From IMG/VR virus record IMGVR_UViG_3300027969_000047: a DNA stretch of 64,000 bases; one strand, given 5' to 3'. This stretch comes from a virus. The notes below the pieces were generated by a model. The model saw only the letters and a list, made by a program, of their open reading frames with translations, was not told the DNA's origin and made no database searches. The position numbers were made by a program, and so were the translations under genes. Within the stretch, counting starts at the first letter, position 1. Each line of letters starts with the position of its first letter. Of this stretch, positions 1 to 64,000 are shown in pieces.

Positions 1-57
1 CGAATTGATATTCGCATAATTCTTCAATACATCCATCGTGTTAGTGGACAATTTCAT
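1..57 (-). CDS. gp45: DNA polymerase sliding clamp, N-terminal fragment (continues beyond window)
   Basis: Manual translation MKLSTNTMDVLKNYANINS resembles the T4 gp45 N-terminus (MKLSxxTxxxLKNFAxINS); GGAG Shine-Dalgarno upstream. Confidence 0.85.
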   Translation of the reverse strand, partial: MKLSTNTMDVLKNYANINS

Positions 58-80
58 ATTTAACTCCATTCAAAAATAAC

Positions 81-109
81 ATTATAACAAACTATCTAAA
101 AAATTGCAA
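81..109 (-). promoter_or_regulatory. sigma70-type promoter for gp45
   Basis: TTGCAA-N17-TATAAT with TG extended -10 on the minus strand. Confidence 0.7.
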
Positions 110-703
110 CATGCTTTTGACTTCATTGCCTAAGTCTTGCACGGTACCATTGTTGTCAATCACATAATTGAATTCAGAACCAATCCAGTCCCATTCCGAT
201 TTGTGAATACCTTTATCTGCCATACCCATGATTGCAGATGAGAAACCTTGATTGGCATCTTCTGCAAGATAATACCAAACAGGCTCTGGTCCTCTTTTTA
301 CTCGAACAACAACTCCATTATTGTCTTGAATGTATTTGATTTCGTTTTGAAACCTAACATCAGTCACTACAACATCTTTGTTTTTTGCACGATTAAGAAG
401 AGATATTACCCACAGGTCTTGGTGAAAGACATTTCTACCAGCCTCAGTTCCCATCAGTTGCAATGCTAGTCTTGGTGTGAATTCATATCCAAATTTTTCA
501 CTCCAATATGAATCAGGTTTCTCACGCCAAGAACGGGAGACCTCGGTGTCACCTTCCAGTAACTCCCGAGGCCAACCGAACATGACAGCGACAGCATCTT
601 TTAAAGGTTTTGCAAAAGAATCTTTTATAAAACCTTGTTCAACTAATAAGTCACCGACTGTACCTTTACCTGAACCTATGAAACCGACTAACCCAATAAT
701 CAT
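92..703 (-). CDS. deoxynucleoside monophosphate kinase (T4 gp1-like)
   Basis: P-loop GFIGSGKGT, SFAKPLK, TPRLALQLMGTE, DVRFQNE and H-x-SE motifs. Confidence 0.9.
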   Translation of the reverse strand: MIIGLVGFIGSGKGTVGDLLVEQGFIKDSFAKPLKDAVAVMFGWPRELLEGDTEVSRSWREKPDSYWSEKFGYEFTPRLALQLMGTEAGRNVFHQDLWVISLLNRAKNKDVVVTDVRFQNEIKYIQDNNGVVVRVKRGPEPVWYYLAEDANQGFSSAIMGMADKGIHKSEWDWIGSEFNYVIDNNGTVQDLGNEVKSMLQFFR

Positions 704-5866: not shown

Positions 5867-7444
5867 TCATGGCTTGTAAAATATGAAAATTGGTTCGTAT
5901 TTCAGCCACATATCACCTTTAATCTTACAGAAGTTTTTCGCTTTTGGCAAGCCAGTCTCTGTATCGATTCGATTACCACCTGGCATTTGTGCGAGTGCCA
6001 TTTTCAACTTACCTTGATACTGCATACCAAGACTTGTCAGAATGTCCATTGAGTCTTGCTCAAGTGGTAACATGTCACCATCGAAGACTGCATCTGCAAT
6101 GTTCCATAAAAGATATCTATCATTCTTCAAGTACTCTACACATGTTTCAAGTGTCTTACGAAGAAAACCTTCTCGCCACAAATCGTATTGAGAGAACTTT
6201 TTGTATGACTGTTCTTCATCTTCAGAGTAAGCCTCTTTCGCAAAGTATGGTGGTGAAGTAAAGATTAAGTCTAGCTTACCTTTGTACTTTTGAAACTTAG
6301 GGTCTTTGCTAATCTCTTCAGAGCCATGTTGAAAGATTTCGTATGTGTGTGTTTTTGGGTACAGTGTTCCTATTGCTCTTGTAGTTTTTGTATTAAAGAA
6401 GTCGGCGAACTCGTGATACTTTGTACGACCGATTGAGGTATCATGGTCTCTATTAGGGTCTGTTCCGATATAATGTATATTACGCTCATCGTCAATAGAC
6501 ATAGCGCCAAGCAAGCGCCCACCCCAACCAGAAGATGGGTCGTAAATATTGATTTGGTCTTGGTCTTTAAATTCATTAGTGTATCGTTCATAGAGATATT
6601 TCGCAGTCAATGGTGGAAAGTTTACAGCATATTGACAGAAAGAAACACGAAAGGCTTTCAATCCAACAGGAAAAAGTTTTTGTCCTTTTTCAAACATTCT
6701 AATTCTAAACATTTTTGCGTTTTTGTATTCGATGTTTGTAATGCAGTGTGCAGGTATTGGAAGAGTATCAATCTCATCACGGGTGAGTGTGATGTATTTG
6801 TTGTTCTTCAACTCTTCATTGTAACCAGTGTATTCTTTATCTTCTTCAGTCGATTCAAGCCAATAGTCATGCGTATCATATCCACGCCATTGAGTCTCAA
6901 AATGTTCAATGAATTCTTTTGCAGATTTTATTTGATTTGTGATTGAGCCAATTTTAATTATTGCACCAATCTGAACTGGTGTAGAGTAATGATAGAATGA
7001 ATCTCTCTTGAAGTGTCTGCTTGCATAAGTGACAAAAGTGTCAAGCAATTCATCTTTAGCAAAGTAATCGTAAATCGATTTACCTTTGTTCACATCTTTG
7101 GTATAGTTGATGCGAGTCTTCATCATTGTTGGGAACCACTGATTAACAGCATTGCCAATTACACTTGTGTTTCGAATCACATCTTCTTCACCTGTCAATA
7201 CATCTTTTACAAGAAATTCATTCACACGAAATGAAGTCATTTTATTGAATTGATTTACAATCTCATGCTCATCATAACCAACTCTAGGCGGTTGACCTTT
7301 CTCATCCCACAACTCAACAACAGTTTTACGAAGGTCGATTACCCATTGGCGAAATTCATCTTTGGTCATCCAAAGAACTTCTTCAAATGTCTTATTGACA
7401 TTCGATTCTATTAATTCTCGATTCTTCTCATAAAAATAATTCAT
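5867..7444 (-). CDS. SAM-dependent amino (N4-C/N6-A) DNA methyltransferase-like protein
   Basis: SAM-binding motif IYDPSSGWGGR, YIGTDPN, catalytic motif IV FTSPPY; likely start ATG 7444 overlapping the upstream stop (ATGA). Confidence 0.85.
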   Translation of the reverse strand: MNYFYEKNRELIESNVNKTFEEVLWMTKDEFRQWVIDLRKTVVELWDEKGQPPRVGYDEHEIVNQFNKMTSFRVNEFLVKDVLTGEEDVIRNTSVIGNAVNQWFPTMMKTRINYTKDVNKGKSIYDYFAKDELLDTFVTYASRHFKRDSFYHYSTPVQIGAIIKIGSITNQIKSAKEFIEHFETQWRGYDTHDYWLESTEEDKEYTGYNEELKNNKYITLTRDEIDTLPIPAHCITNIEYKNAKMFRIRMFEKGQKLFPVGLKAFRVSFCQYAVNFPPLTAKYLYERYTNEFKDQDQINIYDPSSGWGGRLLGAMSIDDERNIHYIGTDPNRDHDTSIGRTKYHEFADFFNTKTTRAIGTLYPKTHTYEIFQHGSEEISKDPKFQKYKGKLDLIFTSPPYFAKEAYSEDEEQSYKKFSQYDLWREGFLRKTLETCVEYLKNDRYLLWNIADAVFDGDMLPLEQDSMDILTSLGMQYQGKLKMALAQMPGGNRIDTETGLPKAKNFCKIKGDMWLKYEPIFIFYKP

Positions 7445-8181
7445 GCAACATTCCATATTAGGGCACCAGCAGTGCCATGTTCTTTAACGAAGGACCACAC
7501 TTTTGCATCATAACACACTTCCGATGGGTATGGGGGCAAATGTTCTAGCTTACATACTTGGTCAAACTTATATGGTGAACGATATGCTGTCGCTCTACCA
7601 ATCTCTCTCTCATTCATAACATGACCAGTCATTACAATGTTTACATTAGCATCTGGCCATGCCATTTGAAGACCTCTTGACAATGTACCTGAACTGGCAA
7701 CAGTCCATACTTCTTTTGGCACAATTGGCAAAGACTTTGCTACTTTAACTATTGATGCCAATACAGTTGGGTGTTCTAAACCTAGAGGAAGAATTCTACG
7801 ATTGATTGTATCTTCTTCATAGTATTTTTTTGCTTTTGACAAAGTGACATTTAGCATACCCATCTTCACCCAATGAATCGTTCCACCTAAGTCAAGAACT
7901 TTTTGTTGTTGCTCAGTTGGAGTTTTTCTTTCAGCCATGAAGAAGGTTGCTTTCTTTCCATATCTATTACAGACTGCTGTAAGTGAGATAGGACCCCAAC
8001 CAACTTTATTCGCACCACCAAAGACCCATTCAGTTGCAGGGTCTGTCTTAACCAAGTAATCAATGAATCTTACTTTGCTACCATACCCTAACAAGTCATC
8101 ACGAAGTACATTGAAACCTTCATGCAATTCAATAACTGGTTTTGGGTTTGGGTCTTGCCAATCTTCAAATGATTCTATCAT
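7441..8181 (-). CDS. PLP-dependent fold-type II enzyme (ACC deaminase/D-cysteine desulfhydrase-like)
   Basis: RDDLLGYGSKVR (PLP lysine), ASSGTLSRGL phosphate loop, YDAK motif. Confidence 0.75.
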   Translation of the reverse strand: MIESFEDWQDPNPKPVIELHEGFNVLRDDLLGYGSKVRFIDYLVKTDPATEWVFGGANKVGWGPISLTAVCNRYGKKATFFMAERKTPTEQQQKVLDLGGTIHWVKMGMLNVTLSKAKKYYEEDTINRRILPLGLEHPTVLASIVKVAKSLPIVPKEVWTVASSGTLSRGLQMAWPDANVNIVMTGHVMNEREIGRATAYRSPYKFDQVCKLEHLPPYPSEVCYDAKVWSFVKEHGTAGALIWNVA

Positions 8182-9256
8182 GTAATTTTTTCTCAGTTTC
8201 TATATCAACAACAAGATGAATTCTTTCTTCATCTCCACCATTCACTGCCATGTGTGGTTTTCTTGTATCAAGAAACCAGCACTCATTTTTTGACATATGA
8301 ATTTTTTGTTCATTACCTTTTGTTCCCCACACAGTAAAAACAACATCATCATTTGTCTTGATTGGGAAATGAAGTCTTGCTACTTTACCAAGTGAACCAC
8401 CAGAGTCAGGGTCTACTTGGTCAGTGTGTCTCTCTAACTCTCCACCGCCAGGTTTCAATCGCATGAATCTCACACGATGAACCTTATCACCAAATTCTTT
8501 TAACAACTCTCTGACTTCAGGAAACACATCATACAATACAGTGTCTTGCAATTCGAAGTTAACATCTTTGTTCTCTTCTTTCCATTTGTCATTCATCTCA
8601 ATTGGCTTAGTGATGAATTCAGGTTCTGGTCTGTATCCACGAAGTGACAATGCACCCCATGATTTGCCTTTGTTGTAGTTGCTGTAATGATTTGTGAACT
8701 CAGGCAACTTCTGCAACTTCTCATAAATTCCTTGAATCAATTCAGGATTCACATCACCAATCTTCTTGATTGATGTATACTCTGCCTTATCGATTACAGG
8801 AAATGGTCTAGCCATTCCTCTGTAGTATATCATATACATCTCACCAAATGTGGTAATCTTTGGACCTACTTGACAGAAACCACAAGTGTGAGCAAGCGCA
8901 TTCATCTCAACATCTTCTGCCCAAACATACATCCAACAATCATCACTGTAGTTGTTGATTCTTTTCTCTAACTCAGCAACATCACCAGTCATGCTACCAA
9001 AAGTAATATCACCTTTTTTCTTGTTTGCAATGACAGTCTTACCATGCATTGTAATTGGCGAAGATGTTTTCGAGATTGATATCTCAATCATTGTATCTTC
9101 TGAAAGAATATGAAGTGAGCCATCATCTAACATACTTGCAATGTTGTTCTTCTTTACTTGAGTAAAAGGTCCGAGAGTGAATGAGTTATACTTCTCAAAC
9201 TTTCCTGCTAGACCTTTGAGGTAGTCTAATTCAAAACCTTTTTGCCATTCTTTCAT
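8165..9256 (-). CDS. 2OG-Fe(II) oxygenase of aspartyl/asparaginyl beta-hydroxylase type with an N-terminal extra (possibly GNAT-like) domain
   Basis: RFMRLKPGG-ERHTD (HxD), RLHFPI, KPHMAVNGGDEERIHLVVD (distal His and Arg). Confidence 0.75.
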   Translation of the reverse strand: MKEWQKGFELDYLKGLAGKFEKYNSFTLGPFTQVKKNNIASMLDDGSLHILSEDTMIEISISKTSSPITMHGKTVIANKKKGDITFGSMTGDVAELEKRINNYSDDCWMYVWAEDVEMNALAHTCGFCQVGPKITTFGEMYMIYYRGMARPFPVIDKAEYTSIKKIGDVNPELIQGIYEKLQKLPEFTNHYSNYNKGKSWGALSLRGYRPEPEFITKPIEMNDKWKEENKDVNFELQDTVLYDVFPEVRELLKEFGDKVHRVRFMRLKPGGGELERHTDQVDPDSGGSLGKVARLHFPIKTNDDVVFTVWGTKGNEQKIHMSKNECWFLDTRKPHMAVNGGDEERIHLVVDIETEKKLHDRII

Positions 9257-9840
9257 TCTACTTGTTCCTGAACTTTAGGTTGAGTCGCTAATCTTCTCTT
9301 AATGTCTACAAGCATTTTCTTTTGTTTCTTTCTAGCCATCTGAACTTTTAGCTGACTAACTTTCTCAACAAAACGAACACCATTCATATGGTCTAATTCA
9401 TGCATGTAACATTGTGCAGTCATGCCTTCAAATCTTTTTTGAATTGTAGTTCCATTGGCATCTTCATATTCTGCTATGATGTATGTAGGCCGAGGAACTT
9501 TCAATGTCATTCCTGGAAAAGAAAGACAACCTTCAGGCTTAATTGTTTCTGGTCCAGTCTCAACGATACGAGGATTGAAACAAACGATATCTGGCATCAT
9601 CACAAAAACACGAAATGGTAATGCACATTGATTTGCAGAGAGACCAAGACCATTGTAATGTTTCAATGTTCTAAGCAATCTTATCGACAAAGACTTTGGA
9701 TCAATCGGTGGATTGACAAAGTTAAAATCAGGCATTCTCATTTTCAGTAATGGAAGATGTTCATCATACACATTGTATGGTTCGTAACTTTCAATTACTG
9801 GTGTTGGTGCTTTTGTGTTAATTACTAGTACTTCACTCAT
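9253..9840 (-). CDS. def: peptide deformylase
   Basis: GLGLSANQ, EGCLS and HELDH motifs. Confidence 0.95.
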   Translation of the reverse strand: MSEVLVINTKAPTPVIESYEPYNVYDEHLPLLKMRMPDFNFVNPPIDPKSLSIRLLRTLKHYNGLGLSANQCALPFRVFVMMPDIVCFNPRIVETGPETIKPEGCLSFPGMTLKVPRPTYIIAEYEDANGTTIQKRFEGMTAQCYMHELDHMNGVRFVEKVSQLKVQMARKKQKKMLVDIKRRLATQPKVQEQVE

Positions 9841-11549
9841 TTTGCTATCCTCGAAAAGTTTTTGACTTTCTCAAACTTAATAATGTTTCTAAATTTATCT
9901 TGCAGTATGTCACCCTTATGTGAGATGACAAACAGATTCACACCCTCAAGAAGATGCAGAATTTTCATCAAATCATCTGTGCCATTTGTATCTAATGATG
10001 AATCGAATATTTCATCAAGTATCAGTAGATTGGTGTTTGCTGAGTTTTTCAACTTAGCAACAGCCCGCCATGTCAACATCAGTGCCATATCGATTCGTTG
10101 TTTCTCACCTTCTGAAAATGATTCATAAGTGAAATCATCACGATGCCTTGACTTGATTGTTTCTTTGAAGTTCTCATCAAGTGTGAAGTTAACAAAGAAG
10201 TCCATCGAAGCCAAATACTTGTTCACCAACTTGTTGATGACTGGAAGATATTGCTTGATGATTTTTGTTTTGATACCAGTGTCTTTCAAAAGAATAGATG
10301 CGGCATCATAGTAAGACTTTTCATCAAGCAACACTCTCAGTCGATTCTTCAAATCACTGAGTGTTTGTTTCAAAGATGCCAATGCTAATTCTTCAGCATC
10401 TGTGGTATCTTTGGGCGACTTCAATTCTGCAATTTTAGCATTCAATCTATCAATCTGCTTGTTTGTTTCAGTGATGGCATTGTTGTTTGTTGCAATTTTT
10501 ATCTGTAACTGCTGAACAATTTTCTGCACATTGTTTATCTCACCCAATGATTTTTGCAAGCCTTGAAGTTTCGAATCTAGTTCTTTGAGTCCATGCTCAC
10601 ATTCCGCACTCTTGGTCGAAAGGTTGGCAATCTCCGTCTCTTTAAACCCGATGGCAATGGTTTGCCTACAGGTTGGACAATCGTCATTATGTTGAAAGAA
10701 ACTGATATCTTTTCTATATTTGGATACTGTGCTTTCAATTTGCGATTCAAGTTTTGTAATTTTCTTGAGTTTATCTTCCACCACAATCTTATCTGCCAAA
10801 ACTGCTTGATGCGTTTCGACTTGTACGGAGAGGTTAGCAACTTCTCCATGTAGGGTTTGTATAGTACTCTGATGGCTCTGTATCTCTTTAGCATATTCAG
10901 TCACCTTGTCTTCATTGTTCTGTTTCATGCTTGCAATAAATTTCTCTTGCATAGCAATCTTTTCATTTGATGATTCGATTAACAACTTACTATCTGAAAG
11001 ACCTTGCCTGTTCTCAGATAACTTTAACCTAACAATACCATTCATAGCAGAGAAAATCTGAATGTCTAGCAAGTCTTCAATGATTGCTCTACGGTCATTT
11101 GCACTCAACTGCATGAAAGGAGTGAACGATGCTGAACCAAGAAGAACAATCTGTGTGAAAGATTTGTAATTCAATTTGAGAATGAATTTCTCAAGAAAGT
11201 CTTGATAGTCTCTTGCGGCGGCATCTTGGTTCAGCAGTTCACCATTCTGATAGATTTCAAACACATTCGGTTTGATACCACGAATAATTTTGAACGACTT
11301 GTTGCCTGTATCGAATTCAACTTCTACAACACATTCTTTAGCATTGATTGAATTCAACAGTTGCGGCTTGTTGATTTTACGAAACGGTTTACCAAACAAA
11401 GCAAAGCACACGCCATCAAGCATTGTGCTTTTACCAGAACCATTTGCACCAACAACTAGTGTGTTTTCAAATTCATCAAAACGAATCTCTGTGAAATGAT
11501 TGCCAGTTGAGATGAAGTTTTTATATCTAAGTTTACGAAAAATTATCAT
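9837..11549 (-). CDS. gp46: recombination endonuclease ATPase subunit (Rad50/SbcC-like)
   Basis: GANGSGKS, CPTC zinc hook, FSEGEK signature, LILDE. Confidence 0.95.
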   Translation of the reverse strand: MIIFRKLRYKNFISTGNHFTEIRFDEFENTLVVGANGSGKSTMLDGVCFALFGKPFRKINKPQLLNSINAKECVVEVEFDTGNKSFKIIRGIKPNVFEIYQNGELLNQDAAARDYQDFLEKFILKLNYKSFTQIVLLGSASFTPFMQLSANDRRAIIEDLLDIQIFSAMNGIVRLKLSENRQGLSDSKLLIESSNEKIAMQEKFIASMKQNNEDKVTEYAKEIQSHQSTIQTLHGEVANLSVQVETHQAVLADKIVVEDKLKKITKLESQIESTVSKYRKDISFFQHNDDCPTCRQTIAIGFKETEIANLSTKSAECEHGLKELDSKLQGLQKSLGEINNVQKIVQQLQIKIATNNNAITETNKQIDRLNAKIAELKSPKDTTDAEELALASLKQTLSDLKNRLRVLLDEKSYYDAASILLKDTGIKTKIIKQYLPVINKLVNKYLASMDFFVNFTLDENFKETIKSRHRDDFTYESFSEGEKQRIDMALMLTWRAVAKLKNSANTNLLILDEIFDSSLDTNGTDDLMKILHLLEGVNLFVISHKGDILQDKFRNIIKFEKVKNFSRIAK

Positions 11550-12625: not shown

Positions 12626-12633
12626 AGTCTCAC

Positions 12634-12662
12634 ATTATAACAAAAAATGACAAAGGTGTCAA
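12634..12662 (-). promoter_or_regulatory. consensus sigma70 promoter for the gp47 to methyltransferase operon
   Basis: TTGACA-N17-TATAAT with TG extension. Confidence 0.85.
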
Positions 12663-50835: not shown

Positions 50836-50843
50836 TATTTATA
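50836..50843 (-). promoter_or_regulatory. T4-type late promoter heading the tip array
   Basis: TATAAATA. Confidence 0.75.
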
Positions 50844-51584: not shown

Positions 51585-51810
51585 TTGTGCCTCTCATAGC
51601 AATAACTTGCAATAATTGTTTAATCTCTTGCATATCTTCTTCTAGTTTTTGCAAACGAGTTCTAGTGTCCTGTTGTTCATTCTTTTGAGCCAAAAGTCTT
51701 TTGCGAGTATTCTGAAATTGTTGGAGACCGTCTCTATCTGTATTTAGAACAGCCTGTGTAGACATGTCTCTAACATATTCAGTATTTTCTATTTTTACGA
51801 AAGTTGTCAC
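51574..51810 (-). CDS. conserved hypothetical protein
   Basis: YVRD..T.AVLNTD plus C-terminal coil (EIKQLL); follows the VrlC-like gene. Confidence 0.65.
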
Positions 51811-54800
51811 GATAATGATGGTATAGCAATGACACGCAAGTCTTTAATTCTTGGTACTTTTGTAGAAGTAGTGTCGGTTGAAGTCATAACAATCTTAATG
51901 GCAAAATACTTAAATGATGTGAAACCATTACCATATGACACTCGGTTGTCAGGTGTTCCTGCTGTTCCTGGTGCATATGTGAATTCTTTCAAATCGGATG
52001 CTGTGATAGACTTCGAGTTAGTACCTGAAATCAATGTCATCAATTGATAATTCTTTGAATCAAATATATCGGTATCGTCAGCAGAAAGAATCTTATAGTA
52101 AACATGAATGTTTGCGCTTGCTGGTTTGTATGCAGTAAATGACAGACGGAAGTCACCAGCATCAAGTCCATCGGCTAATGTGACTTTACGAGTTATATAT
52201 CTTGCTCTTGCTGGACCACCAGATGCTTGGTCTTCACCACTCGAAACTGCGGTTGCTGGAGTTGCTGATGGATTGCCACCAGTGATTGTAACTGTTGGTG
52301 TGGTTGTATATCCTGAACCACCAGCATCAACAACAATGGCAGACACTTTACCACCAGAGAATGTGGCATATGCATTGGCACCACTACCACCACCTCCTGT
52401 TATTGATATTGAAACATTGCTGTTTGTTGTATATCCAAAACCAGGATTTGTGATAATAATATCTGAATTGGCAAGTGATAAATCGTCAACATAGTTTTCA
52501 ATTGCAAGTACACTCAATCTTTCAACATCAACAAGTGGAGAAATTTGTGTATTGTCAGATGCCAATAACAATCTAACTTTGAATGAGTTAGGGTCGGTTG
52601 TTAGAACACGGCGTCCTAGTGTATCATCAAAGAATACATTTTCTTCAATGTTGAATGAACGCATATTCTGACGCTCACCAGTTGAACTCATTGTTGATGC
52701 ATAATATGTACCAATAGATGTATTTGGTAAAATCAAATTCTGAGATGTGATATAGAATGAGTCAACAGAAATATTTGATGTTGGTAAATCCATTGAGTCT
52801 AAACGGAATTCAACATTCGCTGTAACAGGGTCATACTCTGCTCTCATAATACGGAACATCAAATCTTCTTCTTGAATTGCTGTCCAAGTAGATGAGTTTT
52901 GTGACTTGAAGAATGAACCGAGATATGGTTGAGTAGAAATGATTCTATCTGTGCCAACAAGTTTTTGTCCAACTTCAGACACATACACTTGATACTTGAT
53001 AGAGTTAGCAATCAATACAATAGCATATTCAGTGCCAGGTTGTAATGTTACAGGTCCTTCAAAATTTACTGTGGTATACAATGCAGTGTCATCTAAAGGC
53101 TGTGTCAATGCAGGGTCAGAATATCTTGCTCTCATTGTCTCTTCAGAAACTTCTTTAATAGTATCTGGATTAACACTGATATCTGCATATGGCAGAATTT
53201 GTGAAGAATGTGGATAACCATTCACCACAGGGCGAATTTGAACTTGTACAGGAATATCAGGGTCTTTTGTTTTGAACAATAGACGCACAGATGTAATTTG
53301 AACACCATTACCATATTGGCGTTGGTCAATAAAGAATGTCTGTGCTAATGGATCCCAATAACCAACTTGCTTACGACCAACAACTTGTTCACGAAGAACT
53401 GCGCTTGAAGTTACAATTGTTCTATCATCTTGCAAATCGGTTCTCTTAATTACAGGAACACGAGTCGAAACAATTGTAGATTCTGTTGTCTGCAATAGAC
53501 CTTGTGCATAATATGTCGCATCGCCATTTGTTGATGATGAAGCCAATGCACCAGATGAAGTATCAGTAAGTCTGAATACTCTTTCACCTGTTCTGAATCT
53601 TGTATCAGTATTACTTGGAATGATGAACACACCAGCAACTTCACCTCTTCTGTCAGAATCAATTGTACCAATAGAATATGTTGAAGTAGTGTCAGGTGTT
53701 GTTGTCCAATTTGAAGAAACTGTCGCCACTCTTGAAGTCACATTATATGAAGAGATTGTTCTCTCTTGTCCAAGTCCTGTTCCTGAGGTAACATAGATTG
53801 ACTTGCCAACATAATTTGTATTTGCCACAGAAGTGTTAGATGTTGTATTGCTGTTCAATACATGGAAATCTAAACTAATTGTGCTTGATGTTGCGGCATT
53901 GGCTTGACCAGAATAGTGAACGAATCCTGAGATGCGAGTATTCGCACCAGATGTTGCACCAATCAAGAAAGTCGCATTACTTGTAACGACACGAACATTA
54001 CCAACATTTGCATCATCGCCTGTTGAAAGGTTAACCACACTCACATTAGTCACTGTAGCTTCATTGCGGTTCAGTACCACAATAGCGGATGCAAGATTTT
54101 TGCTTGTTGCAGGTTCGTAAATTCTTACTGCTTCACCATTTTGGTATGTGTCAATGTAGGCGGCAGTATTGCTTGAAACAATAATCTTATTTGTTTTATT
54201 CAAGTAAGTTTGAACGGCCTCACCATCAAAGAATCCATATAATGATGTGTTAGGTTTAAAGCCTTTACCGATGAAGACAATGCCACGAGAACGAATATAT
54301 GGAATGATAGAAACATCGATAACACGATTACCAATATTCTTTGTGATGGTATCTGTTGAGAATTGAGTATTGATACCAGTTCTTGATTGCTTTGATGTGA
54401 CATCGGCAACTGTTCTTTTAACGATATCTTCATACACAGGAACATAATGTCCCAAAGGACCTAACCAACCTCTGTCTGCTGGAACAACAGTTTCATCTCT
54501 TTGATTGGTAAGAGATGTTGAAAGAGTTTGCCATGAATTCCAATGAGCGCCGAAAGTTTCAGGCGCAGATTTTTCAACTGTTTGTGCTAAGGCTGCCCAT
54601 GCATCATTGTCACCTTCAAGGTTAACAAGAACATCAGGCTTCTGGTCAGTGTCAACCCAATTATCAGATGATGGGTCTAGTGAAATTGAACCAATGAATG
54701 ATACCGCATTGAATGGGTTTACATTAACTGCTTTTGATGAATATGGTTGGTCAATCAATGTTGTTTCAGAATAGTTGATTGACACTAACAAACCATTACG

Positions 54801-57800
54801 CTTGTAGTTGCTACTATTTGTTTCGTAGATATCTAATTGAGTATTATCAATTGAGAATGGTGGGCGAAGTTCTTGTTGTTGAGAATCGATTGATGCTTTG
54901 TAATCAACATTCAAAACATCACCAATGTTATGTCCTGTGAATGGGTCAACAAGAATACCATTCTTGAAACGAGCCAATCCAGTTTCATCGTCAGTGATTT
55001 GTGTTTCTTTAGCCGCTTTTTCAAGCAAGTTTAACGAAGTGTAATATTCAAGATTACTAATTCTCTTTTCAAGCAAACCAATATCACGCATTGTGTAGCG
55101 GCGATTGTCGATAAACTTAACACGAACATTTTTAATGTTAGCAGTGTATGCAGGCAATGTAATTGTATACAATGTCATTGCATTTTCTTTATCTGCTGGC
55201 GCTGTTGGTGTCAACGAAGGTGTGCCACGAAGAACTTCAAATGTTCTATCTTTGGTAGCAATAACCTTATCGATTCTTGGCAAATAATATGAGAAGTCGG
55301 TTTCTAAATCTGTACCAGATTGTCCAAGAATAATCTCATCATATTGTCCAGTTGTATCGCCATTCTTACGGCGAGGTCTGAAGTCAATAGAATCAGACAA
55401 TGCATAACTCAGTCCTGTCTGAGGTGAAGTATACATTGGAACTTCTGAGTAAGTCAACCCAGCATCGATATAAGAATCAACAGTCAAATAACCTGAACCA
55501 GTGTGACCATAGTAATTCAAATATACAACGGTATTACCTGTAGGTCCAGTTTTATTTGATTTCAATGTGATTGTTGCATGGTCATAAGCATTATCTCTTT
55601 GACCAGAATCAAAATTGTAGTTGGATGTCAAGTCAGTTGCAAATGATAAGTTAGCTTGTGATGCAACATTCGAACCAAAGTCTTTAACAGCGGCTAACGA
55701 AATACCATCAGCAACATATAAAACTTGTGGGCTGTTTGGTGTTCTTAGTGCGGTTGTTGCTGTATTTGCAAAAACAAGTTGAGCACCATTAGCACCAGAT
55801 GTTTGTGATGCTGTTAGAGTTATGCCAGTTGCAGGTGAAGTTGAAGAACTTGTGGTATCATACAATGAAGTATTAGCTAACAGTTTTTGTTTTGATTTAC
55901 GAAGACTTCCCAATGAATGAGAATATGGTAAACGAACTTTTGTGTAAACTCTAGCGGATGCATTATTTGCACCATTGACAGTGATTGTATAAGTTGATGT
56001 ATTGCCAGCAGTAGTCACTGTTACAGAATTGGCACTACTCATTAAATTGATAACTGTACCATTAGCATATGTTGTGCCAGCACCAGTTAGAGTAATGAAT
56101 AAATTATCAATAGCATCAGAAGTTGCTAATGGGCTTCCTGTGACTGCTGAACGAATACCGGCGGCAGTTGTGAATGATAGGATGCCAGTTGAACCAAATG
56201 TACCAGCATACACTTTGCGCCCATAGTATTCGCTGTTTGTGATTGGTAAAGCACCAGATGCTGTAGCATCAGCAATCGCCGCTTGTGGGAATTGGAATAT
56301 TAACTGATTGAAGTTTGTTTCTGAAATGAATGCACCACGATATGCATCAACAAGAACATTGTTCTTATTTGCAGAGTTGACATCCATTCTTGTGGTAACT
56401 GTTGCACCAGAATTGATGATGAATGATTCTGCATCTTTGAATTCATAGTCAAGCGAGAATTGTGTCGCTGGATTTGGAAGACCAAATACAAAGTTTGGAG
56501 AAACTGTTGCTAATTTTGTAACACCATTATAATTTGTAATAGTAACAATTTCATTTACATTAGCGCCAATATCTTTTACGATACGAAGTTTTACACCATC
56601 ATATGCATTATTTTGAACTGCGGCATTTGAATCAAGTACGATTGTATTTGCCGAACCTGATTGTGCATTAGCACTTCTGAAAGAAACATTCGCATCAAAA
56701 ACATATCCACGGAATACGCCAGTCTTAATGCTTGTTGTGTTTGCACCAGACTGATAATCTAATGCACGAAATCTAATTGTACCAATGTTTGTAGCACTTA
56801 AAGTAGTGGTGCTTGTGGTGTTTAGATTAGCAGTGTCTGAACAATGAATAGCCAATGGCTCAAATGTCTCTAATGGAATTGGTCCAGAAATATTTGATAC
56901 ATCAACATAGTTTTGATAGCTGATTGTAACACCATAGTTTGTTACATTGGCAACTTCACGAGCCTTTTCAGAAAGAAGAACTGTAGGTCCTTTTGTCTCA
57001 AACTCATAACCGAGAATGTATGCTTTACCAGACTCAAGCACAATGTTATATGCATTGGCATAAGTGGCGTTATCATTCAATGAAATTTGAAACGGGCGAA
57101 CTGAATAATTACCAGACTCATCATGTGTTCTACGAGCAAGAGTCTTTTCAATCTCAGCATATGTTGGATACTGAATTGATTTTGTCAACTCACCATCTTT
57201 AACACGAAGCAATTCGATGAAACTTGTGTCATCGGTACTTGTCAGAGACCTCTTAGCTAAAGTGAGCGTAATTTTAAAACGAGTAGAGCCTGGTGCTTGA
57301 TAGTTGGATGCATCTTGTGCAGGGTCAAGCAATGAAGTGTCGTTACTTTCATTGATAATTTCTTCAGTGATTTGAAGACCTACCTTGTAAGAAGGTAGTG
57401 CATTGTATCTTTCAAGAATGATTGACTGTGAACCAACTCTCGCAAAATAACCATTGACAAAGAAGACACCATCATTGATGCTACAAACAGATGCAGAACC
57501 TGTTGGGTCCACGCCAAAAACTGTTGCGAAAAAAATCTCATCTTCAGTCTCAAGATTTTCATTGGCAATGAAAATATCACCAGATGTATATTTTACAACG
57601 AGAGTTGGTTGATTGCCATCTTCACCAGCATCAACGGCAATAACATATGCACGAGTTCCACGACCAGTGGAATCTTGAATCCATTTACCATCGAAGTTTG
57701 CTACATCAATAGCATTGCTATTAAAAGTGTTATTGACTCTAATAAAACCGACACGCTCAACTTCAAGTGTGGTTTGTCCACCAACAACAAGAGAACCATT

Positions 57801-57968
57801 TTTAAACACATGCTGACCAAAACGGTCAACTTGTTTTTGAAGGGCTGTCTGTAATTGTGTTAATTCACGAGCCTGAACGGCATAGCCAGGACGGAACAAA
57901 AGTTTGTAGAAATCTTTCGTTTCATCGAAATCATCATAATAAGGGTTTTGTGAAATATCAATAGCCAT
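51807..57968 (-). CDS. large baseplate/virion protein, VrlC / DUF4815-like
   Basis: [62 protein letters not shown]. Confidence 0.85.
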
Positions 57969-57975
57969 GTTTTAC

Positions 57976-59298
57976 CTAGAATTTAACAACGAATTTAATG
58001 TTTTCTGCTTGATTGCTTGCACGAGATACGGGTGTTCTATTTTCGACATAAATCAAATCTCCTGTCATCGGTTCAAGTTCTGGTTGCGTTACATTAACAA
58101 CAGTCCTTGACACGGTAGAAGTATTTCCTTTTAAATTTACACCGACTTGAATCGTTCCTCTAACTTCATTTAACTTAACCAAACTTGCTGAGTTATCAAC
58201 AACATATCCACTAAAAGTGCTATTTGCCGAATCAGTTCCCTGATACACTAACTCATCAATTGTGAAATCTGTACCTGATGTAATCACAATATCTGTCGTT
58301 AATGAAACGGCAGAGTTTGCATTTGCGGAACTAATCTCAGTATTCTGTCCATATTTATGAGGTCCAACAAGCAAAGATACTTGTCTAAAATCATTATTTA
58401 TAGTTATTTTACCACCTTCAGTAGCATCTCCGCTACCAACTTTGACGGCAATCATCACAGTATTTGCGCCCAATTCTCTTGCTGGATTGAACGCATGTCC
58501 ACCATATGCTGAAATGATTGGTCGAACATTAGCGCCAGTGCCAGAACCAACAACAGTGATTGTGCAATTTTGACGAGTGTAATCTGTGCCACGAACAATA
58601 TTATTAAAACCAACAAGAACACCATTGGCAATATTTGCAGTCACATTAGCGCCGGCGCCATTACCTGTAATTTTAATTGAGGTGTTTGTGTTTCCATAAC
58701 CAGAACCACCAGATTCAATTTTGAGTCTTGTGATTGCACCTTCTACAATGTTGTTTGAACTTCCACTGTATGAATTAAATTGTGCTGTTGGAACTGGAAT
58801 AAAATCATCAGTGATAAATTTATTTGATGGTGGAATAGCATACATGTATTTCCACACATATCCATCAGCAGTCTCAATGAATCCGTTACTGATTGTATAG
58901 TCACCAGTGGGTTCAACTGTTGATAAACCACCGTTTCTATTATCAAGGCAACGATAAACTGCGCCAGTAGAAGTGTACACATAGTTTCCGTTTGCCGATG
59001 AATACATTCCATCAGAACGGTCATCGTATGGTGTATACACAGAATTTGCTGTCCAATCAAATCTTGGAATTACAAGATATACATCATTACCGGTTACTTT
59101 CTTACCACCAATCATTGCACCATAAACATCATAAACAATATTGTCGGTGTCTACGATAGCAGGTGGTGTGTCATCGGCATCCCAAGAAACACTTTTTCCT
59201 AGAACAACATAACCCACAGTAGCGGCTGGCTCAGAGAAGCCTTCAGCAAACTGAACCGCATCATTATATCCTAATCTTCTTGTAGAGAGTGTAGTCAT
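57976..59298 (-). CDS. gp8: baseplate wedge subunit
   Basis: IPR.DW, VYRCLDN, DGYVWKYMY, DFRQ, GDLIYVENR.P. Confidence 0.85.
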   Translation of the reverse strand: MTTLSTRRLGYNDAVQFAEGFSEPAATVGYVVLGKSVSWDADDTPPAIVDTDNIVYDVYGAMIGGKKVTGNDVYLVIPRFDWTANSVYTPYDDRSDGMYSSANGNYVYTSTGAVYRCLDNRNGGLSTVEPTGDYTISNGFIETADGYVWKYMYAIPPSNKFITDDFIPVPTAQFNSYSGSSNNIVEGAITRLKIESGGSGYGNTNTSIKITGNGAGANVTANIANGVLVGFNNIVRGTDYTRQNCTITVVGSGTGANVRPIISAYGGHAFNPARELGANTVMIAVKVGSGDATEGGKITINNDFRQVSLLVGPHKYGQNTEISSANANSAVSLTTDIVITSGTDFTIDELVYQGTDSANSTFSGYVVDNSASLVKLNEVRGTIQVGVNLKGNTSTVSRTVVNVTQPELEPMTGDLIYVENRTPVSRASNQAENIKFVVKF

Positions 59299-59317
59299 AT
59301 CTTTTATTTATGCGTCA

Positions 59318-61264
59318 TTACCAAGCATCAGTAGAAGCAATTCTGCTCCAAATATTTGTCGTTCCATCATAGTTTGTAGAGCAATAATAGATAAAGTTAT
59401 TTGCAAGAAATACCATTCCTTTAGTGTGACCAGATATACCTTTATTTGTAGAAGGCACTGTACCAATATGTGTTAATGTGTTTGCGGTAAACGAAATTGC
59501 AGTATTGGTGATTGAACTTACACGACCATTTGCGGCTAATGTGATAACTGGAACTATAGTTGCATTACCATAAACTCCAGCAGTAGTTGTAATACTTGTA
59601 GTGTCGGTATTAGCTGTATTAAATGCGGCATTGGCTTGAGCAAAAGCAGCCAATGCAGTATTAGCACCGGTGTCATAACTTAACTGTGCAATCGTTAAAG
59701 CAGTATTGGCAGTATCGAATGCACTGTTTGCTTTATCGAATGCGGCATTGGCTTGAGCATATGAACCATTGCTTGTATTTGCTAAATTGAAAACAGACTG
59801 TGCAGTAATTAAGGCAGAATTTGCTAATGCATATGATGAACTTGCAAGTGTGTTTGCATTATTTGCTAATGTGTATGCGGTGTTTGAATTAGCATATGCT
59901 GAATCAACTTTCACATTAATTGTATTGGCCCACGAATAAGCAGAATCAACTTTTACATTGATTGTATTCGCCCATGCGTATGAACTTGTTGCAATTGCAT
60001 TGGCAAGATTTGCTAGGGTGTATGCAGTGCCTGCAAATGTGTTTGCAGAAAGAGCATTTGTATTTGCGGCAAGTGCATTTGCATTTGCAGTAGCCGCCGC
60101 AGTTACAGCACCACCAGCAGTGATGATAGAATTATTTGCCGCAGTGTATGCTGAGTTTGCACGAGAGTATGCGGCATTGGCTCTATCGAATGATGCTTGA
60201 ACAGCAGTAGAGTTTGCAGTTACGGCTACACTATTTGCAAAATTAAATGCGGCATTGGCATGTGCAAAAGAATTCTTTACTGAATTTGCCGTAGCGGCAT
60301 TTGAAGTGCTTGTCGAGATTGTGCTATCTTCAAGTTGAACAATACCAGGAACTGAAGTTGTTGAAAGTTGAATGGTAGTGTTAGTGATTGAACTTACACG
60401 ACCTTTTGTTGTTGTGGTAATAACTGGAATGCTTATCGCATTACCGTATGTTCCTGGAGTGCCAACATCAATCAGACCAATATCAATTGTATCGGTTGTT
60501 GCATTTGCAGAAATGAAAATACCATTCGATGCATTTGCCGTAATTGTCAAGGTGTCCGAATTGCTTGCCGCAACAATATTTGTGCCGTTAGCGGCAATTG
60601 TAACGAATGTATTTTGTGCTACTGAGTTTGCTTTATCGAATGCGGCTTGACTGGTCACATTGGCAGTAGTAGCCAATGTGTTTGCGGCATTCGCTTGTGC
60701 ATATGCCGCATTGGCTTGAGGTCTAGCAAATGTGTCTGTTGTTCCAGATGAGAGAGTGTTCGCAAAGTTATATGCATTCTGTGCTAGAGTAGTTCCAGAG
60801 TTGGCTTGTGTATATGCGGCCGCCGCTACAGTGTTTGCGAGAAGTGCTAATGTATATGCAGAATTGGCCGTACTGAATGCGCCGTTGGCATAAGTTGTAT
60901 TAGCAAAACCTGTGATTGCAGTATTGACGATTGAACTCACACGACCATTAGCAGAAAGGGTGACAACTGGAATATAAAATGCATTACCATAAACTCCAGC
61001 AGTGGTAGAGATTGTGGTGTAATCTATATTGGCTTGATTGTATGCATTCTGCGCTAAAGTATTTGCTGAATTGGCTTTTGCAAAAGCGGCATCACCGGTA
61101 CTCTGTGCATTTGCAGATGCGTTACCGATGGCCGTGTCAAGAGCCGCAAGTGTGAACTGTTTTGTAGTACCAGATATTTTATCGTAAACAACAAATACCG
61201 TATTTTGAGTATTTGCTGATGCGGTTGATAATACCGGTAATTCTATAATTGTTTTACTAGCCAT
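59318..61264 (-). CDS. Ala/Asn-rich coiled-coil fibre protein
   Basis: Many AF/Y-x-x-AN-x-A heptads; three G.YGNA..(I/V)PV.T....GRVSSI.NT modules. Confidence 0.75.
   Translation of the reverse strand: MASKTIIELPVLSTASANTQNTVFVVYDKISGTTKQFTLAALDTAIGNASANAQSTGDAAFAKANSANTLAQNAYNQANIDYTTISTTAGVYGNAFYIPVVTLSANGRVSSIVNTAITGFANTTYANGAFSTANSAYTLALLANTVAAAAYTQANSGTTLAQNAYNFANTLSSGTTDTFARPQANAAYAQANAANTLATTANVTSQAAFDKANSVAQNTFVTIAANGTNIVAASNSDTLTITANASNGIFISANATTDTIDIGLIDVGTPGTYGNAISIPVITTTTKGRVSSITNTTIQLSTTSVPGIVQLEDSTISTSTSNAATANSVKNSFAHANAAFNFANSVAVTANSTAVQASFDRANAAYSRANSAYTAANNSIITAGGAVTAAATANANALAANTNALSANTFAGTAYTLANLANAIATSSYAWANTINVKVDSAYSWANTINVKVDSAYANSNTAYTLANNANTLASSSYALANSALITAQSVFNLANTSNGSYAQANAAFDKANSAFDTANTALTIAQLSYDTGANTALAAFAQANAAFNTANTDTTSITTTAGVYGNATIVPVITLAANGRVSSITNTAISFTANTLTHIGTVPSTNKGISGHTKGMVFLANNFIYYCSTNYDGTTNIWSRIASTDAW
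59500..61005. repeat. three dispersed intragenic repeats in the fibre gene
   Basis: GATTGAACT(T/C)ACACGACC near 59510, 60387 and 60929; GCATTACCATAAACTCCAGCAGT near 59562 and 60981. Confidence 0.7.
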
Positions 61265-61272
61265 GTTTTACC

Positions 61273-63903
61273 CTAGTTGAAAAGTAGTGTCTCTTCATTT
61301 TCTGTTTGTAAATATTCCAAATTCTCTGTCTGAATTGCCTCAACAACCGTCACGATTGTAACGATGATGTTTCCGTTCGAAGTATATGTGAACGGAGAAG
61401 TTACTGTCAATGATGTATTACTTATAATGTTATTAACTGTTCGTATTTCATTATTTACAAGAACAGAACATCCAATAGTAATTGTACCATTTGTATTTGC
61501 CACATTGAACAATGTACCTGTACCAGTGACTACAATACTTGCATTGGCAACATTGACTGTACCAGTAAGAGTCGTTTCACGAGAAACTTGTCCAGTTCTA
61601 GCAGAAGTTGCTCTCTGTGGAGTGACTGTTTTCTGAATCATGTATTCAGCAAACATTCTAGTTCCCGAAGGATGAATCAAATCTTTTAGAACTTGACTGT
61701 ATTTATTGAAGTCGGTTTGAGACTGAATCACATATGAATAATTTTGATAGTAGTCTCTATCTTGAATTCTTCTGTCTGAACTCAACAAACCATCAGTTGT
61801 TATGAACTTACCTTCATAGGTAAACTGAGAACTTAACAATGTTGCCACAGCATTTGCTAAACCATTACCCAGTCCTGTTAAATTGATAGTTGGTACAGTT
61901 TCATATTGTGAACCTGGATTTGTCAAAAGAATAGACCTGATTTGTCCTGGATCAAATTCAGCATCTGCTAATAGTGATTCACCATCACCATATATTGCTT
62001 CAGAAATAAGAATTGCATTATTTCCTGTAGCAGAAGTTACTGTGATTGTTGGTAGTAAATCTTGTGCATATAATTCACCACCAATATATGTTCTATCATA
62101 AATGCCAATTGATGCATTTGTTGTAGTAGTTGTCCATTGAACATTTACATTGGCACTTGTTGCACTTGAAATTGCATTGATGAATCTGGTCTGATTACTG
62201 ATTTCAATCTTATCACCAATACGCAATTCAGTATTAAAAGCAGTACCAGTACCAACAATTGTAACACCACTCGCAGTCACATTAGCACGACCAAGTAATC
62301 TTGATGGTGCAAATTGAATTGTTTTGATTCCGTTGTTTGAAGAATGTAGTCCAGACACTCTAGCATATGCACCCCAACCACTGCCACCAGAAGGAGTTTG
62401 AAAGTTTAACTCATCACCGACTGTATAATTTGAGCCGCCATTTGCTACATTGATTTTACCAAGAATGCCTAATGTAACAATGCTTGTATTGCCTGTGGCT
62501 GAGCCGCCGCTTGTATTTGATGATGAGAATGCAACAGTTGGTCCAACTGCATTTAATGTTGGTAATGATGAGAACTCAAATGTGCTTGATAATATAACGA
62601 CATTGCTGATTGGACCTAAACCAGTAACACTAGCATATGACAATGCATCTACAATTCTTGTTGCAGAATTTTCGCCGGTTGGTATAACTGTAGCAGGAAA
62701 ACCATAATCAGATATTGATATTGTTTTGCCTTCATATAGAGAAATGATATCTGAGTTAACATTGATTGTATTTGGATGAATACTGCCTGTAGAATTTACA
62801 GTACCAATAGCCATCGTTAATCCGGTGTTTGGTGTAGTTGTGATGACAACATCACCACCAGATTTAAAACCAGCACCACCAGAAACAACAAGTATTCTAG
62901 AAATTAATGCACTGTATACTTCATTGATAATAGCAGATGCTGGCGCTTCAGGACTACCACCAACAATCGGAACAACATCGCCAACATTATAACTTGCACC
63001 ACCAGAGACAATATTAATCTCTTTCAAAACAGAGAGAGACTTGAAGTATAAAGTTAGATAGTTGGAACCTTCATAAAAATATTTACCAGTAATAATTTCG
63101 CCTTGAATAAACGGAACTTCTTTACTGACATTTGAAACGAAGATTTCATTTACATTCAATAGACCAACAATAATTTCTTCTGCATTTTCAGACAATGCAG
63201 TAGCGCCAGATGTTTCACCAGTGAAAGAGAGAACTACTTGAGTGCCATCTGTTTTGCTAACTTTATTGATTATGTCAGACGATACAAAATTAAATTTAAT
63301 TGTTGCACCGTTTGCTGGCGCTACATCAAATGTGATGATTGGATCATTTGGTGATATGTTAAATCCTGTTGTTTGCAGAACCCCATTAACATAGACTTCA
63401 AGATTTGTTGTGCTTGCGATTTCAAACAACCTAAAAACTCTTGTAGTTCCATTGCCTGTTGCAAGATGATAAAAATCAGGTAAGAAACGAATAGATTGTC
63501 TCTTAATCCATTTACCTGACGATAGTCTTAGAATGTTATCTTTAGGATAGAAGATTTCAATCTCTTCACCATACAATGCTCTGAATAGAAAACGATATGC
63601 TTTCTCTGTACCTTTGGCACGCCAAAAGTCTCTAATGTGTTTAACAAGAAATGCTTTGTTGGCAAGTGTTTCAGCAGGAATTGAATTTAAGAACTTGCGG
63701 CGAAAGTATTCTTCGAAATCAGTAAGAGTATTATCTACATCGAAATAATTTAAAAGATTTCTACCAAAATCTGTTGATTTGTTTGTTTGCTCTAGGTACT
63801 CATAATATGCCTCAACAAAGGCAACAAAAGTATCATAGTCTGCCCGAATAAATTCGGGCAGTTGTTCACGAACAACAGTGGATAACTTATTAGTTATTGA
63901 CAT
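61273..63903 (-). CDS. gp7: baseplate wedge initiator, gp7-like
   Basis: QLPEFIR...F..F..AYYEYLE, KGT..AY.FLFR.LYG, IQD.DYYQ.YSYVI, HPSG; between gp6 and gp8. Confidence 0.75.
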   Translation of the reverse strand: MSITNKLSTVVREQLPEFIRADYDTFVAFVEAYYEYLEQTNKSTDFGRNLLNYFDVDNTLTDFEEYFRRKFLNSIPAETLANKAFLVKHIRDFWRAKGTEKAYRFLFRALYGEEIEIFYPKDNILRLSSGKWIKRQSIRFLPDFYHLATGNGTTRVFRLFEIASTTNLEVYVNGVLQTTGFNISPNDPIITFDVAPANGATIKFNFVSSDIINKVSKTDGTQVVLSFTGETSGATALSENAEEIIVGLLNVNEIFVSNVSKEVPFIQGEIITGKYFYEGSNYLTLYFKSLSVLKEINIVSGGASYNVGDVVPIVGGSPEAPASAIINEVYSALISRILVVSGGAGFKSGGDVVITTTPNTGLTMAIGTVNSTGSIHPNTINVNSDIISLYEGKTISISDYGFPATVIPTGENSATRIVDALSYASVTGLGPISNVVILSSTFEFSSLPTLNAVGPTVAFSSSNTSGGSATGNTSIVTLGILGKINVANGGSNYTVGDELNFQTPSGGSGWGAYARVSGLHSSNNGIKTIQFAPSRLLGRANVTASGVTIVGTGTAFNTELRIGDKIEISNQTRFINAISSATSANVNVQWTTTTTNASIGIYDRTYIGGELYAQDLLPTITVTSATGNNAILISEAIYGDGESLLADAEFDPGQIRSILLTNPGSQYETVPTINLTGLGNGLANAVATLLSSQFTYEGKFITTDGLLSSDRRIQDRDYYQNYSYVIQSQTDFNKYSQVLKDLIHPSGTRMFAEYMIQKTVTPQRATSARTGQVSRETTLTGTVNVANASIVVTGTGTLFNVANTNGTITIGCSVLVNNEIRTVNNIISNTSLTVTSPFTYTSNGNIIVTIVTVVEAIQTENLEYLQTENEETLLFN

Positions 63904-64000
63904 TTCTTAGTCTAGGAGTTACAACAACAGAATCTGTACCATCAGCATCAATTAAAAGAATTTGATTTTTTCTTGAATCGATAATTTTATTTTCAGGTTC
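63890..64000 (-). CDS. baseplate wedge subunit gp6, C-terminal fragment
   Basis: Manual translation EPENKIIDSRKNQILLID...; position upstream of gp7. Confidence 0.6.
   Translation of the reverse strand, partial: EPENKIIDSRKNQILLIDADGTDSVVVTPRLRNVNN

Follow-up and report, generated by a model that had tools for sequence, protein, structure and literature searches.

Why would a phage genome keep certain short palindromes only where they overlap a GG or CC dinucleotide? The question is raised by a 64,000-nt stretch of the IMG/VR virus record IMGVR_UViG_3300027969_000047 (hereafter the window, positions 1 to 64,000), in which GATC and GCWGC are found exclusively next to such a step. A first-pass annotation of the window had ascribed this flank rule to a base modification carried by the phage, and had pointed to a gene cluster at 5867-9256 as its possible source. 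Here we evaluate the rule in the window and in its relatives, the mark that could lie behind it, and the genes that could make this mark.

Survival of short palindromes in the window

Expected counts were obtained by shuffling synonymous codons within the 59 minus-strand genes of the window (200 shuffles), keeping each protein and the codon usage of each gene. The GC content is 38.6% (exact count over the 64,000 nt). GATC occurs 25 times (at 9699, 13018, 16573, 17566, 18923, 19414, 22899, 30337, 32808, 37738, 38731, 39292, 39461, 39636, 40891, 41008, 41207, 41227, 41269, 43695, 45020, 47724, 53351, 61950, and 63342; span 9699..63345), the first site being the one at 9699, and all 25 read GGATC or GATCC. 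Two of them, at 39292 and 53351, carry both flanks as GGATCC. Sites with no, one, and both flanks thus number 0/23/2, against about 98/62/5.6 from the shuffle. The same holds for GCWGC, whose 21 sites (at 18602, 23670, 25080, 28206, 30908, 32738, 33281, 33764, 35332, 36046, 37680, 37974, 40866, 41092, 41190, 44801, 45762, 46172, 46975, 54592, and 59646; span 18602..59650) all read GGCWGC or GCWGCC: 0/12/9 were observed and 74/29/2.3 expected, with the double-flanked GGCWGCC enriched approximately fourfold. The codon-preserving comparison, which the first-pass annotation had proposed, thus leaves ~98-99 unflanked GATC and 74 unflanked GCWGC to be explained, none of which is present. By random sampling of sites, survivors that are all flanked would have a probability of ~1e-10 for GATC (0.40^25) and 1e-11 for GCWGC (0.30^21). 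Every number and coordinate in the first-pass annotation agreed with our exact counts, including the complete absence of ACGT and CGCG.

In total, observed and expected counts were 25/167 for GATC, 21/105 for GCWGC, 0/167 for ACGT, and 0/52 for CGCG. Beyond the sites listed by the first-pass annotation, CGWCG (0/41), CTGCAG (0/28), AAGCTT (0/16), and TCATGA (0/10) are missing, and CTTAAG, TGCGCA, AGCGCT, and GCATGC are also purged, for at least a dozen short palindromes (about 14). These lie far below the codon-preserving expectation, as in restriction-site avoidance. The avoidance is visible in the coding of Ala-Ala, for which the preference for GCC or GCG in first position holds: the first codon of the pair is GCC in 75 cases, GCG in 37, GCT in 12, and GCA in 5, and the commonest alanine codons in the window are GCA (813) and GCT (499).

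A third core, GTGCAC, is found only as GGTGCACC (3/3). Its three sites (24598, 28156, and 34793; span 24598..34798) all lie in the perfectly palindromic 10-mer TGGTGCACCA and are thus double-flanked, giving 0/0/3 against 4.1/5.4/1.3 expected.

AGCT was said to occur freely in the window, which proved wrong: 63 copies were counted and 205 expected, a threefold depletion, with AAGCTT absent and GAGCT/AGCTC present once. This sole copy (45865..45869, plus strand) reads GGAGCT, where 61 copies were expected, 16 of them flanked. At GAGCT, flank rescue is ineffective. We did not retain the single GGAGCT as support for the rule, as the chance of such a flank is ~26% and the case is not significant. 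AGCT is purged specifically with a 5' G or a 3' C, a flank effect opposite to the rescue rule, and the depletion of GAGCT/AGCTC probably marks a five-base target. GAGCT/AGCTC is missing from many relatives and common in others. Two further signals were set aside. An excess of flanked GCGC is confounded, since the CGCG purge deletes the C-5' and G-3' flanks. The deficit of CC/GG (0.92, z −16) with an excess of TC/GA (1.03), considered as a trace of 5-methylcytosine deamination, is too weak and too confounded.

Recurrence in cultured and uncultured phages

The sequence of the window indicates that it covers the structural and recombination genes of a T4-like myovirus, kin to pelagimyophages and cyanomyophages (Kyanoviridae). 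Its genes all lie on the minus strand and form a T4-type set: major head protein, scaffold, protease, portal, sheath, tube, terminase, neck, and baseplate, together with the late sigma factor gp55, gp46/gp47, UvsW, and UvsY, with cobS/cobT-like genes, a peptide deformylase, and a deoxynucleoside monophosphate (dNMP) kinase. The head protein shares at most 63% identity with those of cultured phages, the best matches being cyanomyophages, the Pelagibacter phage HTVC008M, and the Methylophilales phage Melnitz. The order gp55-gp47-gp46-def-[slot]-cobT-cobS is common to the window and the Pelagibacter phage Mosig (family Kyanoviridae). Close relatives of the window are present on hundreds of IMG/VR contigs, and the nearest record (G001, 52.9 kb) has 29% of sampled 31-mers in common with it. 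We compared 160 related loci (L001-L160) and the whole genomes of HTVC008M (NC_020484.1), Mosig (MT647606.1), S-PRM1 (NC_055761.1), and Melnitz (MZ577097.1).

In HTVC008M, all 83 GATC sites are flanked (0/55/28 observed, 208/78/7 expected), and the rule extends to GANTC (0/33/10; 43/43 flanked) and GTATAC (0/11/3; 14/14 flanked). Mosig is stricter at GATC, with 19/19 sites reading GGATCC (0/0/19 observed, 212/86/8.5 expected); its GTATAC sites (0/7/3) are all flanked (10/10), ACGT is absent where 249 copies were expected, and CGCG is absent too. The nearest record to the window repeats its pattern, with 0/11/1 for GATC, 0/3/7 for GCWGC, and 0/0/2 for GTGCAC. Among the other uncultured relatives, flanked survivors make up 8/8 GTAC sites in L159 and 7/7 GTSAC sites in L103. 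Hence the rule reaches beyond the cores first proposed for it, to GTGCAC in the window and to GANTC, GTATAC, GTAC, and GTSAC in relatives and pelagiphages.

All palindromic cores were then scanned in an unbiased way, each with every possible flank base, in the window, HTVC008M, and Mosig. Wherever one flank base was common to all survivors of a core, this base was a 5' G or a 3' C. The p-values were 9e-14 for GATC and 1e-11 for GCWGC in the window, and 3e-45 for GATC in HTVC008M (83/83), where GAWTC (28/28) and GASTC (15/15) also emerged. Partial and weaker enrichments of other flanks were seen at AGCT, CATG, GGCC, and CASTG. We discarded a G-flank enrichment at TCGA in L096 (11/14, p 5e-4), a probable chance result among many tests.

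Across the 160 related loci, GATC is found in three states: unconstrained (~36% flanked), depleted with flanked survivors, and absent. In the 40 GATC-depleted loci, 203/235 survivors are flanked, against 36% in undepleted loci. L103 is without GATC and nevertheless follows the rule at its GTSAC sites, so that the mark seems to occur also where GATC gains no protection from it. Sites with an internal CC (CCGG, CCWGG, GGWCC, CCNGG, and GGNCC) were purged in 0/316 tests over the clade, compared with 87/1033 for sites without CC. Grouping the flanked-only loci by common 21-mers left four groups, most loci being merged by conserved genes, so this is not a firm count of lineages.

A second flank rule was observed in S-PRM1 and Melnitz, in which CCGG is purged except as GCCGG/CCGGC (32/32 sites, 162 expected, and 15/15 sites, 88 expected, respectively), the flank shared by the survivors being again 5' G/3' C. 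This suggests a GpC-context mark in these two phages. A C5-methyltransferase is encoded in Melnitz at 4070-5170, and none was detected in S-PRM1.

Orientation and dose of the flank rule

In the window, palindromes of the G...C type persist only if flanked by G on the 5' side or by C on the 3' side. The opposite orientation gives no rescue: for the cores CGCG, CGWCG, CTGCAG, and CTTAAG, sites with a 5' C or a 3' G (CCGCG, CCGWCG, CCTGCAG, and CCTTAAG) are absent, where ~47 were expected. This bears out the proposal of the first-pass annotation that a GG/CC step at the site edge defines the survivors. Because the rescue is one-way, the deciding pair is the outermost G:C of the site, provided that it forms the 5' C of a CC step (equivalent to the 3' G of GG), as the first-pass annotation had inferred.

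The immunity claimed for overlapping sites stood in part. Only flanked sites survive, but flanked GATC is itself reduced to 0.37 of its expectation, and protection therefore looks partial. A second flank adds to it: GGATCC is enriched fourfold in HTVC008M (28 seen, 7 expected), double-flanked GATC is the only form retained in Mosig, and the frequency of G at position −1 of GATCC is 0.29 in the pooled relatives, against a baseline of 0.07. In HTVC008M, GATCC is followed by C in 0/111 cases, where ~10 were expected; in the pooled relatives the next base is weakly constrained, with A and G favored over T.

A putative covalent mark in GG/CC context

The flank rule thus recurs for seven cores in several lineages, including two cultured phages, with the same orientation and dependence on dose. 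We propose that the DNA of the window was purged of short palindromes by site-specific nucleases, and that the phage would carry, wherever it replicates, a covalent and post-replicative mark on the base pair formed by the 5' C of CpC and the 3' G of GpG. Where the marked pair is the outermost of a target, the nuclease would be unable to cut that half-site. One flank would then yield a hemi-modified site, nicked or cut slowly and partly protected, and two flanks would yield full protection. This scheme fits the partial depletion of single-flanked sites, the enrichment of GGCWGCC and GGATCC, and the all-or-none behavior of GTGCAC in the window and of GATC in Mosig. On the sequence evidence at hand, we consider a covalent, phage-carried GG/CC-context mark well supported although unproven, with a probability of roughly 65%. 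We infer that the cause is a chemical modification, phage-encoded and placed in the major groove (cytosine N4/C5 or guanine N7/O6). Replacement of all cytosines, as in T4, would not give a flank-dependent footprint.

An alternative to any mark is that the nucleases intrinsically need a base other than G before their site, or belong to one unusual family with this property. Flanks do affect the cleavage rate of some restriction enzymes. However, unmodified GGATCC is an ordinary substrate of GATC enzymes, and the characterized GATC, GANTC, and GTGCAC enzymes normally cut G-flanked sites. Moreover, seven cores, purged in differing combinations, show one flank dependence, and the need for one or both flanks differs by core, as would be the case for different enzymes meeting a common mark. 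We thus give the absence of modification very little credit. Since G-flanked sites are normally cut and seven cores fall under one rule, a single GG/CC mark met by different nucleases is the simplest cause.

The chemical position of the mark is less constrained. The footprint is alike compatible with an altered cytosine, an altered paired guanine, or an altered linkage between bases, and cannot tell them apart. In particular, a phosphorothioate-like GpG/CpC linkage might block enzymes that cut at the edge of their site (^GATC, ^GTSAC). Known phosphorothioate motifs include CpsCA, GpsGCC, and GpsATC, GATC enzymes cut exactly at the junction between flank and site, and base and phosphate are indistinguishable by a sequence footprint. 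On the other hand, the characterized enzymes for GANTC, GCWGC, GTGCAC, GTATAC, and GTAC cut inside the site and not at the junction; Dnd/Ssp modification is only partial, and a dnd-like gene set was not seen among the open reading frames (ORFs) of the window. A backbone mark appears barely probable in comparison with a modified base.

Several observations weigh against the proposed GG/CC mark. Firstly, GGCC, which contains the C that would be modified, falls far below expectation in HTVC008M (22 seen, 96 expected) and in four relatives, and is the exception among CC-containing sites, being purged in 4/78 tests. Secondly, some sites are purged without rescue (GAATTC in HTVC008M, GAGCT and GCATGC in the window), so protection would have to be nuclease-dependent. 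Thirdly, some lineages (L049/L136, L071, and L103) are wholly without GATC. Lastly, no candidate enzyme co-varies with the flank rule, and standard modification families were not recovered. No C5-methyltransferase (PF00145) was found in the scanned ORFs of the window, in the relatives G007 and G008, or in HTVC008M and Mosig, and no thymidylate-synthase-type deoxycytidine monophosphate hydroxymethylase (PF00303) in the complete relatives. TGT/DpdA (PF01702) gave no match in G007 (100% complete), G008, G006, G003, and G005, with 14/14 controls matched, and TGT was likewise absent among the window ORFs. TET/JBP (PF12851) matched nowhere, control genomes included, a negative of little weight.

Genes at 5867-9256 and the variable slot

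Which gene could make such a mark? The only recognizable nucleic-acid-modifying enzyme in the window is a 529-aa S-adenosylmethionine (SAM) methyltransferase-like protein (5867..7456, minus strand) that carries motif I as DPSSGWGG and motif IV as TSPPY. Both motifs are invariant among 32 homologues, and the product has the SAM motif I and the catalytic (S/D/N)PPY motif IV expected in an amino-methyltransferase. Its match to PF01555 (27.4 bits) is barely above the cut-off of 26.7. The predicted model (pLDDT 86) has as nearest solved folds the tRNA m2G enzymes Trm11, TrmN, and Trm14 (Z 14-15), followed by generic class I methyltransferases (Z 12-14). More than 2700 uncharacterized metagenomic homologues are 59-93% identical over the full length. 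Next to it lie genes for a 246-aa protein resembling fold-type-II pyridoxal phosphate (PLP) enzymes (7441..8181, minus strand; phrog_7093, E 3e-29, with a weak PALP match) and for a 363-aa protein with an Asp/Asn-hydroxylase-type 2-oxoglutarate dioxygenase domain (8165..9256, minus strand; PF05118, E 1e-13). The two are variably present beside the methyltransferase in relatives.

The cluster first proposed as the source of the mark does encode three enzyme-type genes, but the rule could not be tied to it. The suggestion that the rule would occur only together with the cluster failed when checked: GATC is flanked-only in loci with the methyltransferase alone, and in loci with a DruA-like GNAT protein and no methyltransferase; the rule also holds with a glycosyltransferase of the TET-associated type in that place. 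Conversely, among lineages with the full cluster, some have no GATC and others have it unconstrained.

Indeed, the slot between def and cobT (5562-9256 in the window; compared in L001-L160 and L165) is a variable island. It is occupied by the SPPY methyltransferase (alone or with the dioxygenase, the PLP enzyme, or both), by the DruA-like GNAT protein, by an uncharacterized protein of 330 aa, or by a TET-associated glycosyltransferase (TAGT) accompanied by a GT1 and an epimerase. The TAGT was found in one relative only, L159 (PF20691, E 6e-43), with sugar enzymes. Flanked-only GATC accompanies the methyltransferase alone, the methyltransferase with its partners, or the DruA-like protein, and the 8/8 flanked GTAC sites accompany the TAGT slot. 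Zero-GATC lineages have the methyltransferase in some cases and the DruA-like protein in others. The methyltransferase and the DruA-like protein were never together in the slot among the loci compared. In HTVC008M and Mosig, a DruA-like protein takes the place of the methyltransferase, and neither PF01555 nor PF00145 gave a match; the DruA-like genes of HTVC008M are gp106 and a paralogue near 99.8 kb. The model of the DruA-like protein (PF14236, E 1e-20) shows a GNAT core, which aligns with Mu Mom (8bv8) over 167 residues at Z 8.5, tied with other acetyltransferases; our literature searches returned nothing on DruA function. No domain common to the methyltransferase and DruA-like families emerged from profile comparison (probability 0.8%) or BLASTP. 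Since its occupants are modification-type enzymes, the slot is plausible as a DNA-modification island. No single slot enzyme is necessary for the rule.

A specific version of the proposal is that the modifier is the 5867-9256 cluster itself, in which the SPPY methyltransferase would modify the 5' C of CC at N4, with possible elaboration of the product by the dioxygenase and the PLP enzyme. The SPPY motif, present in this methyltransferase, is typical of N4-cytosine enzymes, and no other amino-methyltransferase was detected in the window or in two relatives with complete or nearly complete genomes. A fixed and short specificity would fit the 59-93% full-length identity seen in >2700 proteins, and a slot that elsewhere holds a TAGT (L159) or a Mom-like GNAT protein looks DNA-modifying. 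Against this, GATC is flanked-only without the dioxygenase and PLP genes in L008-L015, and without the methyltransferase in L096, L112, L121, and L134, as in HTVC008M and Mosig; the GATC states of the full-cluster carriers, reported above, do not fit either. Moreover, the nearest structures are tRNA guanine-N2 methyltransferases, so that the substrate may not be DNA, and the PF01555 match is hardly over its cut-off. We regard this version as doubtful: the 5867-7456 product is a candidate modifier, which the comparative data do not tie to the rule.

One dinucleotide specificity arising from unrelated slot enzymes is awkward to explain, and it is equally possible that a conserved primary modifier lies elsewhere in the genome and that the slot enzymes are decorators. 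The mark could be a new chemistry, e.g., cytosine N4 acylation or methylation by the GNAT or SPPY enzymes of the slot.

The mark could also be real but made by a conserved orphan methyltransferase of the host. This would be coherent with the lack of co-variation between phage genes and the rule, and with the fact that HTVC008M and Mosig, isolated on one host strain, both follow it. Nevertheless, the rule is common to marine pelagiphages and freshwater relatives whose purge sets are very different and whose hosts presumably differ, and a host mark protects only if all hosts in the population carry it. We know of no bacterial CC-dinucleotide methyltransferase, and a host origin seems to us quite improbable with respect to a phage-carried mark.

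At 92-1515 of the window, a T4 gp1-like dNMP kinase is paired with an adjoining conserved 271-aa protein (phrog_1574, with a weak Anp1 glycosyltransferase-like match), and the pairing is kept across relatives. In some of them, the pair directly adjoins the methyltransferase. One near-complete relative of 162 kb has a further and distant paralogue of this methyltransferase domain (G008:C1:134176-134835; 31% identity), in a 426-aa open frame.

The nucleases behind the purge

Host restriction enzymes are the usual candidates for such a purge, and the first-pass annotation had proposed host enzymes of the MboI/Sau3AI and TseI types as the putative cutters. However, only 1 of >100 SAR11 genomes is reported to have a restriction-modification (R-M) system (PMC7029224). 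If SAR11 is nearly free of restriction systems, what nucleases purged a dozen sites from the phages of these hosts? HTVC008M and Mosig come from isolations on the same SAR11 strain, HTCC1062, and each is purged of at least eight short sites, with sets that differ: among others, TCGA, GANTC, GAATTC, AGTACT, and TCTAGA in HTVC008M, and ACGT and CASTG in Mosig. CGCG is absent or nearly so in HTVC008M, Mosig, Melnitz, and 35/46 testable related loci; the cyanophages S-PRM1 and Syn9 do have it. Its loss is a constant of the clade, unlike that of the other purged sites.

The rarity of R-M systems in SAR11, the differing purge sets on one strain, and the clade-wide loss of CGCG make phage-borne nucleases a live alternative to host restriction. 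The cutters would then be the phages' own site-specific enzymes, used for breakdown of host DNA or exclusion of rivals, and self would be defined by purged sites together with GG/CC marks. We judge this scenario unlikely. Neither MutH/Sau3AI (PF02976) nor DpnII (PF04556), both families of GATC nucleases, gave a match in ten phage records, a negative weakened by the fast divergence of such enzymes.

Whatever the cutters, the analysis predicts from sequence alone where an unreported DNA modification would lie, and in which orientation, in very abundant aquatic T4-like phages. HTVC008M and Mosig are in culture, and the prediction is directly testable on them. As no standard modification family was found in these genomes, the enzyme would probably be a new kind of dinucleotide-specific modifier, which could also be useful for footprinting, as are M.CviPI and M.CviPII. 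More generally, the comparison of cores and flanks is a way to read modification specificity from any phage genome.

Comparison with known systems

Phage site avoidance, context-limited phage modification (Mom, GpC-directed TET), and a viral enzyme that methylates the first C of CC are already known. M.CviPII and M.CviQIX of the chloroviruses are virus-encoded and methylate cytosine-5 of the first C in CC or CCD (PMC9636781). They are the closest known analogue, since the mark predicted here falls on the same 5' C of CC, and the absence of C after GATCC in HTVC008M resembles the CCD of M.CviPII. However, no PF00145 homologue is present in the ORFs of the window, in the complete relatives, in HTVC008M, or in Mosig, and the hosts here are bacteria and not algae. 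Furthermore, the chlorovirus methyltransferase has a nicking enzyme of its own as a partner, whereas here the genome has purged sites and does not rely on the mark alone.

The Mom protein of phage Mu is a GNAT-fold enzyme that places a carbamoylmethyl group on adenine N6 in a short sequence context and blocks many restriction enzymes (PMC7261163, PMC13219725). The likeness lies in a phage-borne, context-limited modification and in the match to Mom of the DruA-like GNAT protein of HTVC008M, Mosig, and some freshwater relatives. In contrast, the footprint described here is within GG/CC and not on adenine, the structural match is middling, and the window has no DruA-like gene.

Hypermodification by the phage TET pathway is confined to the GpC dinucleotide context. 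The TAGT in the equivalent slot of L159 recalls this pathway, but the context here is CC and not GC, the window is without TAGT, and no C5-methyltransferase was detected (the TET/JBP search was uninformative, its controls being silent). This pathway combines TET, a 5-methylcytosine methyltransferase, and a glycosyltransferase in the post-replicative hypermodification of cytosine (PMC8256090).

In the literature searched, we found no prior report of the flank rule, of the GATC pattern of HTVC008M, or of DNA modification in pelagimyophages. What appears to be new is the flank-conditional survival of sites, its spread across an abundant aquatic T4-like clade, and the lack of a known enzyme family to explain it. 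Classical site avoidance removes sites regardless of their flanks, whereas here survival hangs on one flank base, in one orientation, and with a dependence on dose.

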